Source: an uncultured Haloferula sp. (GTDB taxonomy: Bacteria; Verrucomicrobiota; Verrucomicrobiia; Verrucomicrobiales; Akkermansiaceae). From it: a DNA stretch of 64,000 bases. Location of the stretch: the NCBI GenBank assembly GCA_965652295.1, contig CBFGTS010000005.1:1-64000 (forward strand), written 5' to 3'. A program made the position numbers. Below are positions 21,001 through 24,000 of the stretch, piece after piece; the first letter of the stretch is position 1, and every line of letters begins with the position of its first letter.

Positions 21001-24000
21001 GTCGTGAAGTTTGAAGAGGAACTTCCGCGTGGTGTCGGCACTGCCCTGGGTGTGGGCGTGGTCGAGCGCGTGCAGACGGAACTCCGCGGCGAGCTTGTCC
21101 CGCAGCGCGGCGGGCAGGTTGGTCATTTCGTCGAACGACCCGACCTGCTTTTTCCACACCCAGTCGAGGACCTGCCCGGCGCGGAAGGCGGGCTGGTCCC
21201 ATTCCTCCATCAGGGAGGCGAGTTCATCCTTGGAAAATCCGGTGAGGGCGGGCTGCACGGCGGCAGCATGCCTGAAATCCGCGCGCTGGCAAATCCGCCC
21301 CGGAACGAAATCGCGCGCGCCTTATTCGTCCTCCATGAACTCCTCGTGACCGGCCTTCTTGGCCTCGCGCAGGGCTTTCACCAGCTCCTGGACCTTCTCC
21401 TTGTCGCCAGCGAGGAAGGCACCTTCGATCTCGCACATGGCGACGAGGGCCTGGGCGATGTGCTTGCGGTAGGCGGCCATGGCCGGCTCCGCACCCCCCG
21501 GATGGCCGCCTTTTTCGACCAGCGCGGGTGTCAGGGTGAAGGCCTTGAGCAGCGCCTCCTGTCCGTCGCGGGCCAGCTTGGCGCCCTCCGCGTTGTCTTC
21601 GGTCCGGCGCAGCGCCTTGTAGGCATCGTTGAAAGCCTCCATCGACTCGCCAAGCGGCGTTTCATCGGCAGCCACAGGCATCAGCGAGGCCAGCGCCACG
21701 GCGAACAGCGGAAAAAGCAATTTTTTCATACGCGGGCAATACACGCGTAGCGGCTCCGACCTGTCAACGGGGGCGCGCGGCTTCCCCTCTTGGCGAAGCG
21801 GAAATCGCCGTTCATTCTCCCGCCGATGTCCGGCACGAAGCTCACCCCGATGATGGCGCAATACCAACAGATGCGCCGCTCGCTGCCTGCCGACGTGCTG
21901 CTGCTCTTCCGCCTCGGGGATTTCTACGAAATGTTCTTCGAGGACGCGCAGACCGCCGCGCCGATCCTCAACGTCGCCCTGACCCGCCGCAATTCGGTGC
22001 CGATGTGCGGCGTGCCCTACCACGCGGCCGACAACTACATCTCGCGCCTGGTCAAGGCCGGCAGGCGTGTCGCGATCGCCGAGCAGACGACCGATCCGGT
22101 TCCGGGGAAAATCGTCGAGCGCGAGATCGCCCGGATCATTTCCGCCGGCTCGGTCATCGAGGAACACCTCCTCGACGGCACCCGCCCGAACCACCTCGCG
22201 GCGGTCTTTCTCCTCGGGAAAAAACTCGGCCTCGCCTGCGTCGATCACACCACCGGCGCGTTCAGCGTGGCCGAGTTCGACGCCCGCGGCGCGCTGCTCG
22301 ACGAGCTCGCCCGGCTGACGCCCTCGGAGCTGCTGTTTTCCGACGAACAGCACGACCACTTCGGCGATTTCCGCGCGGGCCAGTCGTATGATGCCTTCGC
22401 CTTCCTGCCGGAGCCGGCGGGTCAGCTGCTATGCGATCATTTCAGCGTCCACTCGCTGGATGGCTTCGGCTGCGCCGGCCTGCACGCCGCCACCGGGGCC
22501 GCCGGCGCGGTGCTGCACTACCTCATCCACCAGCTCCGCCGCCCCTGCGACCACCTCCGCAGCCTCAAGGTCCGCGAGGATGCGCGCACGGTGCTCATCG
22601 ATGCCGCCTCGCAGGCGAACCTCGACCTCATCGACTCCCGTTCCGGCCGCAAGCACACGCTGCTCGGCGTGCTCGACCGCACCAAGACGCCGATGGGCGC
22701 GCGCCTGCTGCGCGACTGGATCCTCCACCCGTTGCGCGACATGGAGCCCCTGCTCGCGCGGCAGGACTTCATCGCCGCCTTCCTCGCCGAGCCATTTCTG
22801 CACTCGAAAATCCGGGAGTCGCTGCAAGGCATCCGCGACGTCGAGCGCACCACCGTCCGCCTCTCCCAGGGCGCCGGCAACGCTCGCGACCTCCTCGCCC
22901 TCGCCACCTCCCTCGACCACATCCCGGCGCTCAAGGAAGATCTCGTTTCCCTCTCCCAATCGACAATCTTCAATCTTCAATCTTCAATCTTCGAGCATCT
23001 CCACGATTTCTCCGAACTCACCACCCTGCTCGGAAACGCCCTTTCGGACGAACCACCCGCCACGCTCAAGGACGGCGGCATCATCCGCGATGGCCACTGC
23101 GCCGAGCTCGACGAACTCCGCTCCGCCTCGCGCGATGGGAAAAAGTGGATCGCCAGGCTCCAGGAGGACGAGCGCAAGCGCACCGGCATCGACTCGCTGA
23201 AGGTGAAGTTCAACAACGTCTTCGGCTACTTCATCGAGATCACCACCGCCAAGCTCGCCACCGCCACCATCCCCGACGACTACACGCGCAAGCAGACCAT
23301 GGCCAACGCCGAGCGCTTCATCACCCCCGCGCTCAAGGAGATGGAAAGCAAGGTCCTCGGTGCCGAGGAGCGCGCCAAGCAGCTCGAATACGAACTCTTC
23401 CTCGAACTCCGCCAGCAGGTCTGCACCCATCTCGACACGCTCCAGGAAACCGCCGCCGCCGTGGCGGAAATCGACGTCCTCGCCGGCCTCGCCGAAACCG
23501 CGAGAACCCACAACCACTGCCGCCCGCAGCTTGAGGAAAGCCGCCGCCTCGAAATCACCGACGGCCGCCACCCGGTGCTTGAGCAGACGCTGGTCGATGA
23601 AAAATTCGTCCCCAACGACACCGGTTTCGATCCCGACGAGTCGCTCGTCCAGATCCTCACCGGCCCGAACATGGCGGGGAAATCAACCTACATCCGCCAG
23701 GTCGCGCTCATCACCCTGATGGCCCAGATCGGTGCCTATGTTCCCGCCGCCTCCGCGACGGTGGGCCTCGTCGATCGCATCTTCTGCCGCGTCGGCGCGT
23801 CCGACGATCTTTCCCGCGGCCAGTCCACCTTCATGGTCGAGATGAACGAAACCGCGCTCATCCTCAACCACGCCACCGACAAGAGCCTGGTCATCCTTGA
23901 TGAAATCGGCCGCGGCACCGCCACCTTCGACGGCCTCTCCATCGCCTGGGCCGTGGCCGAGCACCTGCACGATCAGATTTCCTGCCGCACGCTCTTCGCC

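Follow-up and report, generated by a model that had tools for sequence, protein, structure and literature searches.

In Nostoc, the STRR and SDR repeats and the heptamer-built stem of the tRNA-Leu intron are mainly non-coding. Intragenic REPs of the GTAG/CGTC type are translated and are biased towards uvrA, polA, dnaE2, DNA ligase and tRNA synthetase genes, and both uvrA genes of the verrucomicrobium Opitutus terrae hold them (Di Nocera et al., 2013, PMC3733652). Arrays of about four heptamer units, GGGAATC in Xanthomonas and GGGGA(T/C)T in Nostoc, are found chiefly close to gene ends, between aligned ORFs, and frequently form inverted pairs, with some copies intragenic (Rehm et al., 2015, PMC4692102). 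TAACTGA repeats have been described from Beggiatoaceae, Cyanobacteria and Bacteroidetes (MacGregor, 2015, PMC4679880), Rickettsia palindromic elements are palindromes of 105–146 bases (PMC3184786), and among long simple repeats, heptamer arrays are reported to be the most frequent class in many bacterial genomes (Mrazek, 2007, as summarised in PMC4679880).

Here, a heptamer array inside the mutS gene of a soil bacterium was compared with its relatives across the genome and the genus. The window was a stretch of 64,000 nucleotides (G000:C5:1-64000, where G000 is this genome). Because orthologous in-gene sites have fixed flanks, an array can be followed over about 30 species as it is gained with replacement, is respelled in register, decays or is lost, and the fixed flanks make the question of copying between loci directly testable.

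Results

The host gene is an intact mutS of 831 aa (21826..24321, plus strand), with Pfam domains MutS I–V and E = 1e-191 to E. coli MutS (1E3M). Within its open frame lies a translated plus-strand array of five sense TCNNCNN units (22960..22994: TCGACAA, three copies of TCTTCAA, and TCTTCGA), containing a perfect 29-base core of CAATCTT (22964..22992, plus strand; TRF period 7, 4.1 copies, 100%). The five units encode in frame the peptide QSTIFNLQSSI (Q378–I388) that an earlier note on this DNA had read there, and together with the preceding partial unit they encode S377–E390. A 3-unit heptamer pattern had two matches in the window and none in 100 shuffles, and the 29-base core recurs in an intergenic array (C6:146858-146920). 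In an AlphaFold model computed from a 31-row alignment, the repeat peptide covers loop 377–381 and most of predicted helix 382–391 in MutS domain III, with pLDDT 73–76 across residues 371–390; the peptide would thus form a five-residue loop and a helix, as a model and not as proof. The aligned E. coli segment, which we take to be a short helix, is four residues shorter than the segment in this genome.

A scored tract was present at the same place of mutS in 13/31 congeners, in three spelling classes, and a fourth class was assigned by eye in G004. The segment measures 39 aa in this genome, 30–33 aa in tract-free congeners and 35–48 aa in 17 outgroups; because the tract-free alleles are shorter than those of the outgroups, the "empty" allele should not simply be read as ancestral. 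A second hot spot, identified by congener comparison at residues 598–610 (23617..23655, plus strand), is empty in this genome, and in 6/31 congeners it contains 30–69 additional in-frame codons made up of short palindromes together, except in G028, with heptamer arms. In the sisters G027 and G033, the long mutS inserts have a common upstream arm and palindrome, followed by downstream arms of different families.

Beyond the gene, 2 kb downstream of mutS, its 3′ end is partly repeated (window 26308-26505; residues 763–828, 64% identity, one stop). Such 3′-end fragments also follow mutS in G004 (four), G030, G031 and G050 (some in each), which suggests islands integrating at the mutS 3′ end.

The 40 tracts with the strongest lag-7 signal in the genome were aligned and gave the skeleton T-C-N-N-C-N-N, and a profile trained on the genome's own tracts returned, at a score of ≥21, 88 arrays in the genome versus 6 and 4 in two codon-shuffled genomes. 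With genes called by a codon model in this analysis, 22 arrays (15 sense, 7 antisense) lay inside 18 genes, 59 were intergenic, 41 of these between co-directional genes, and 7 were at contig ends; nine close opposed pairs were counted among the 88. Tandem 7-base units were over-represented relative to other periods, and the loosest lag scan gave 21 in-gene tracts at lag 7 versus 2–4 at lags 5, 8, 10, 11 and 13. These counts bear out the earlier note's picture of in-frame heptamers in some twenty genes and its lag-7 excess (25 versus 5–8 under other settings), and arrays were present at the places it had named in leuS, priA, uvrA, uvrA2 and alaS.

Hosts were assigned with Pfam/NCBIfam. They comprise the DNA genes mutS, uvrA, a double-length uvrA (uvrA2), priA, ligA, an ATP-dependent ligase and an SNF2 helicase; alaS, urea carboxylase, aconitase, nspC, thiE, an HscA-like chaperone, rfbH and lpxI; and a GH95 hydrolase, a short aldehyde dehydrogenase frame and one gene without domain assignment. 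The leuS tract scored 16.9, below the cut-off, and is genuine by congener comparison. A few weak matches are due to chance, among them an SNF2 match at C5:107103 (score 19.9), which was rejected as ordinary conserved coding sequence. Contigs C8, C11, C16 and C17 of this genome each have an end inside a long perfect heptamer array, and longer arrays may thus be missed in the assembly. At least 139 array stretches were found on viral contigs, which are a possible carrier.

The skeleton produces stop codons in 0/256 units on the sense strand and in 103/256 on the antisense strand. In a pattern-picked set from other congeners, from which about ten sites (known host genes and three cassette flanks) had been left out, 40/126 tracts lay in coding frames, 38 of the 40 in the sense orientation. 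No gene was split by a tract among 182 loci of six genes, one nspC being split at another part of the gene, and all in-gene inserts seen were in frame and stop-free, which argues against removal from RNA. Given the stop-free sense strand and the lack of split genes at these loci, the tracts are most simply translated. At the mutS site, a contig from one RNA run, belonging to a relative about 90% alike, was 21 bases shorter; this matches the length of the tract-free G032/G008 allele, and the contig therefore carries no information on splicing. On the reading favoured below, the tracts would largely be neutral passengers, translated and not spliced.

About 30 congeners were compared for each gene, and sites held different heptamer families or none, as expected of the hot spots described earlier; the statements then made about congeners for mutS, leuS, priA and uvrA also hold. 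The term "inserted" suits only part of the material. Gains were seen in thiE (+21 bases, +7 residues, absent from 5/5 congeners, with native codons substituted), in hscA (+8–9 residues, common to G021 only among 5 congeners) and in leuS (a segment of 59 residues here versus 40–43 in 18/30 genomes). Elsewhere length is hardly affected: the uvrA segment is 45 aa here and 43–52 aa in 29 congeners, among which only G021 shares the tract; SNF2 residues 418–455 span 38–39 aa in 6/6 genomes with four different families; and uvrA2 residues 250–296 span 47 aa in 17/30 genomes, 10 with and 7 without a tract as judged by eye. The uvrA2 tracts of G030 and of G001/G011 belong to different families at the same length and T-C register, and the ATP-dependent ligase tracts of G000 and G021 likewise combine equal length and register with different units. 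In purL, where 30/32 loci could be anchored, a 47-residue allele retains a QSA...PQSA-like peptide in several genomes after the periodicity of the DNA has decayed. For rfbH, an orthologue at the cut-off was available in only 1/5 congeners.

No target-site duplication was seen by eye at mutS, thiE or hscA, and the fixed length, conserved terminal inverted repeats and target-site duplication of MITEs or insertion sequences did not characterise the tracts, whose lengths and ends vary between loci and genomes. Many tracts are replacements of resident codons, often length-neutral, and what looks like different families at one site, several of them assigned by eye, is often a respelling of one old tract and not an independent insertion. 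The proposal of repeated insertions into empty sites accordingly finds no support in that form, in view of the length-neutral replacements, the "empty" alleles that look decayed (purL) and the rewriting that separates G027 from G033. At another heptamer site, alaS residues 738–778, distant congeners G021 and G016 (L105, L128) carry a near-identical foreign replacement of 49 residues, a sign of allele transfer.

Spellings were found to be shared between unlinked loci. Three loci of this genome, the intergenic C1:427819, nspC and SNF2, carry the same ordered 29-base string, and their similarity does not extend past about 30 bases. In a collection of 185,579 species, which may omit the nearest relatives, the string turned up in only 3 stretches; in one, from another verrucomicrobium, it is an in-frame part of thiC and occupies the variable segment that has a different spelling in G019. 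Tracts at different genes shared a fraction of 0.064 of 10-mers within clades (188 pairs) versus 0.012 between clades (513 pairs), a difference reached in 0/2000 permutations, and same-site tracts of different clades shared 0.021. For one spelling class, whose genome-wide load ranges from 0 to 304 overlapping matches, genomes with in-gene tracts of that class had a median of 104 matches versus 6 (rho 0.66, n = 34). Clades were assigned by hand from a quick, unfinished mutS tree, with G012, which is absent from it, placed by likeness, and since kin are not independent either, the permutation and correlation figures overstate the effect. The vocabulary is small, and shared strings can also arise by convergence.

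Against this background, purely local microsatellite evolution was weighed. Sites would have been seeded once or by chance duplication, after which slippage or slip-realign copying would homogenise, respell and delete units, lineage mutation bias making the sites alike. The mutS tracts of G000 and G021, which have equal length and differ chiefly at a single base per unit in three units, are what such a process would leave; within long intergenic arrays one spelling gradually gives way to another, decayed tracts exist (purL), several "empty" alleles look decayed, and for bacterial heptamers slippage has already been put forward (Mrazek, 2007, as summarised in PMC4679880). Local evolution does not, however, account for the ordered 29-mer at three unlinked loci, for the de novo thiE tract with its replaced codons, or for whole-arm swaps between sisters (G027/G033 mutS). 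One-unit slips would moreover be expected to frameshift alaS, leuS, ligA and priA, and 21-base steps would be unable to homogenise neighbouring units. We consider this account unlikely, if still a serious one. The spellings shared across unlinked genes, the in-register rewriting and the 29-mer at three loci point instead to short-patch copying.

The arrays also flank the genes of small cassettes. Three four-helix-bundle genes (TIGR02436) are present in this genome, their product presumably being related to the DGR accessory protein Avd, and those at C1:86522 and between pheS and pheT are flanked by an antisense and a sense array. Genus-wide, the cassettes have the antisense arm upstream and the sense arm downstream; both arms scored ≥15 in 9/30 loci, and the best arm match was in the expected orientation at 27/30 and 29/30 four-helix-bundle loci. 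Arm spellings match in-gene tracts, for example in G031, and the in-gene arrays are of the same family as the cassette arms. Related layouts were noted around other genes. Two GxxExxY genes have inverted repeat arms (L237, G000:C6:28913-29308; L235, G000:C12:8289-8666), the one on C6 with 9-base arm units, a parallel cassette type. An MmcQ/YjbR gene (L233, G000:C1:52033-52596) lies between heptamer arrays arranged opposite to those of the four-helix-bundle cassettes.

Other passengers occupy the same loops. The leuS loop holds REP-like palindromes in 7/30 genomes versus heptamers in 5/30, and the palindromes are elements separate from the heptamers. The RAYT of this genome, above the NF047646 cut-off, ends in inverted palindromes and not in heptamers. 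A RAYT with inverted palindromic ends lies in frame in alaS (residues 415–613; L015:2025-2620) in G000 and G006 (2/30), and nine other congeners have unrelated inserts of 11–116 residues at that site. At leuS residues 405–450 (L131-L160) an in-frame RAYT-like domain was recognised by motif in 8/30 genomes, and G000 has instead a foreign segment of lower GC that is 36 residues longer. In ligA (residues 177–407; L013:1305-2000, G000:C14) an in-frame PolyVal kinase domain is full in 11/30 and shortened in 1/30 genomes, patchily on the tree, and is followed by a scored tract in 4 genomes. In purL (L481, L482, L497; G019, G022, G008) a PolyVal kinase, with no BLAST match to that of ligA, is present in frame in two genomes (2/30), and a third retains its N-terminal fragment, with the heptamer tract lying immediately downstream. 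The purL tract occurs in close relatives that lack the kinase, so it probably predates the kinase, and the site looks like a landing pad and not a scar.

These observations bear on the suggestion, made in the earlier note, that in-gene tracts are scars of a cassette system. A heptamer-armed cassette, carrying the four-helix-bundle gene or other cargo, would have inserted and then been lost imprecisely, leaving one or both arms. The antisense-upstream, sense-downstream arms of the cassettes would supply such remnants, and the long mutS inserts of G003 and G033 share the two-arm hairpin layout; tracts follow kinase cargo in ligA and purL, tract frequency correlates weakly and positively with the number of cassettes (rho 0.40, n = 30), and G032 has neither a cassette nor a tract at any site examined. 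Several findings speak against it. Among 13 loci picked for long open frames or clustered copies, no four-helix-bundle gene was fused in frame into a host, the extra frame looking by eye like off-frame run-through of neighbours. A four-helix-bundle gene lay within about 1.5 kb at 1/141 pattern-picked array loci, three known flank sites having been left out, and beside 0/139 loci on viral contigs (500-base flanks). Cargo between an antisense and a sense arm characterises intergenic copies and no in-gene tract, the purL tract occurs without cargo in close relatives, and length-neutral sites would demand precise repair every time. An origin as scars is therefore improbable.

Host genes were then classified. 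The earlier note had placed the tracts mainly in DNA-repair and aminoacyl-tRNA synthetase genes. For DNA metabolism this is supported: 8/18 hosts (seven and alaS) belong to the class, versus at most 4 of 106 sampled background genes (Fisher p = 1.4e-5). The background was drawn from twelve 20-kb blocks, in which 130 genes were eligible and 106 were used, with 1 (strict) to 4 (generous) in the class. The synthetase part shrinks to two hosts, alaS and leuS. Hosts are longer (median 893 versus 287 residues), and among genes over 600 residues the counts were 8/11 hosts versus 2/19 background (p = 0.001). An independent set from other congeners repeated the excess weakly, with 3/16 new host families in DNA metabolism (polA, a dnaE-type polymerase and a second SNF2; p = 0.047), the others including purL, thiC and U32 peptidase. 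Hosts are mostly core genes and the background is rich in accessory glycosidases; gene age may be the cause of the excess.

The same excess could be taken to mark selected devices, either contingency switches, in which a 7-base slip in mutS would act as a reversible mutator, or tuners of repair enzymes. The perfect 4.1 x 7 repeat at the mutS core would suit a switch, and the same speculation has been made for REPs (Di Nocera et al., 2013, PMC3733652). Yet frameshifted mutS was found at 0 of 32 genus loci, and the sole independent contig across the mutS tract has no gap; near-identical contigs from two runs end on either side of it. The hosts include essential and metabolic genes as well, the repeats of most tracts are degenerate, and tracts are lost in sister species. 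SOS-coupled targeting was rejected: a LexA box, which we take to be the Verrucomicrobia motif, lay upstream of 0/17 host genes, its 6 perfect sites including one upstream of lexA (positive control). Selected devices are thus very unlikely.

Discussion

The reading that we favour, and hold slightly likelier to be right than wrong, is short-patch copying between arrays, filtered by the stop-free skeleton strand and by protein tolerance. The tracts would be solo copies of a genome-wide family of TCNNCNN arrays of about 4–5 units, whose members also form the inverted arms of the four-helix-bundle cassettes. First, some 30 bases of array would be copied from locus to locus in a gene-conversion-like short patch, overwriting resident DNA without target duplication. 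Second, as computed from the skeleton, one strand is stop-free in all frames, so that a frame-preserving sense copy would be translatable; three heptamers equal seven codons, giving a peptide with a 7-residue period that can replace a native segment. Third, to judge from the alignments and the one model, selection would retain events in variable loops, linkers and short helices. Fourth, a seeded tract would be rewritten in register by the spelling current in the lineage, an outcome visible in the alignments, or would undergo local homogenisation, substitution decay or deletion. Alleles probably also pass between species by recombination in conserved flanks, as the patchy cargo suggests. The default agent would be host recombination or repair acting on array homology; no enzyme or intermediate of copying was seen in this analysis.

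Short-patch copying leaves the DNA-metabolism excess and the retention of the skeleton across phyla unexplained. A further reading is a dedicated enzyme-driven writing system. A mobile machinery, in which the four-helix-bundle protein might for instance be paired with a reverse transcriptase or a RAYT, would use the arrays as its substrate, overwrite about 30 target bases in register with a preference for DNA-metabolism genes, prepare landing pads for in-frame cargo domains and continually supply 7-residue-periodic segments domesticated as helices. We regard such a system as a rather remote prospect.

If copying between arrays is the source of the tracts, the selfish DNA of this soil bacterium repeatedly supplies flexible parts of about twenty conserved proteins. 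Non-coding repeats would become structural parts of conserved enzymes, as the MutS helix model and the PurL peptide that outlasted its repeat suggest. Heptamers are the second repeat class, after REPs, to be found concentrated in DNA-repair genes, and heptamer segments can mislead alignments and indel-based markers in the genus.

Compared with the parts of PMC3733652 that were consulted, the tracts resemble REPs as short repeats translated within genes, and here REP-like palindromes occupy the same loops as heptamers. Unlike REPs, which are 20–40-base stem-loops with a GTAG/CGTC tag, the mutS tract is a direct tandem array of 7-mers; the tracts take the place of codons, frequently without a change in length, and are rewritten in register by other spellings, and the same sites are used across the genus, whereas in that paper's account REPs use mostly different sites. 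The Xanthomonas and Nostoc units, read on the other strand, fit TCNNCNN, and the spelling TCCCCAA occurs at C15:23575. As with those heptamers, the arrays here are mostly intergenic, most commonly between co-directional genes, with some inverted pairs. In the parts of PMC4692102 compared, each genus has a single spelling, interpreted as a quadruplex or regulatory motif, whereas the mutS unit does not provide quadruplex-able G-tracts: on the minus strand it has no G run, and G runs occur in some spellings only. Translated tracts, orthologous turnover and cassette arms, all analysed here, are absent from those parts. As with TAACTGA (PMC4679880, in the parts compared), one strand of the heptamers contains stops and the other reads through as a peptide with a 7-residue repeat, and some copies lie in ORFs; intragenic TAACTGA copies are at protein ends or in hypothetical ORFs, whereas the tracts here are in core domains of conserved enzymes. 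The likeness to the Rickettsia palindromic elements and the Nostoc cases, as far as the parts of the sources compared go, is that of selfish repeats creating peptide segments, with different heptamer classes at one site.

A literature search, outside which lay most subscription journals and also Additional file 3 of PMC3733652, which may list some of the same genes, returned no account of length-neutral, in-register overwriting by heptamer arrays inside conserved genes, and none of lineage spellings common to genes and cassette arms. Relative to the known REPs and heptamers, these two features, length-neutral in-register overwriting and lineage spellings common to genes and cassette arms, appear to be what is new here.
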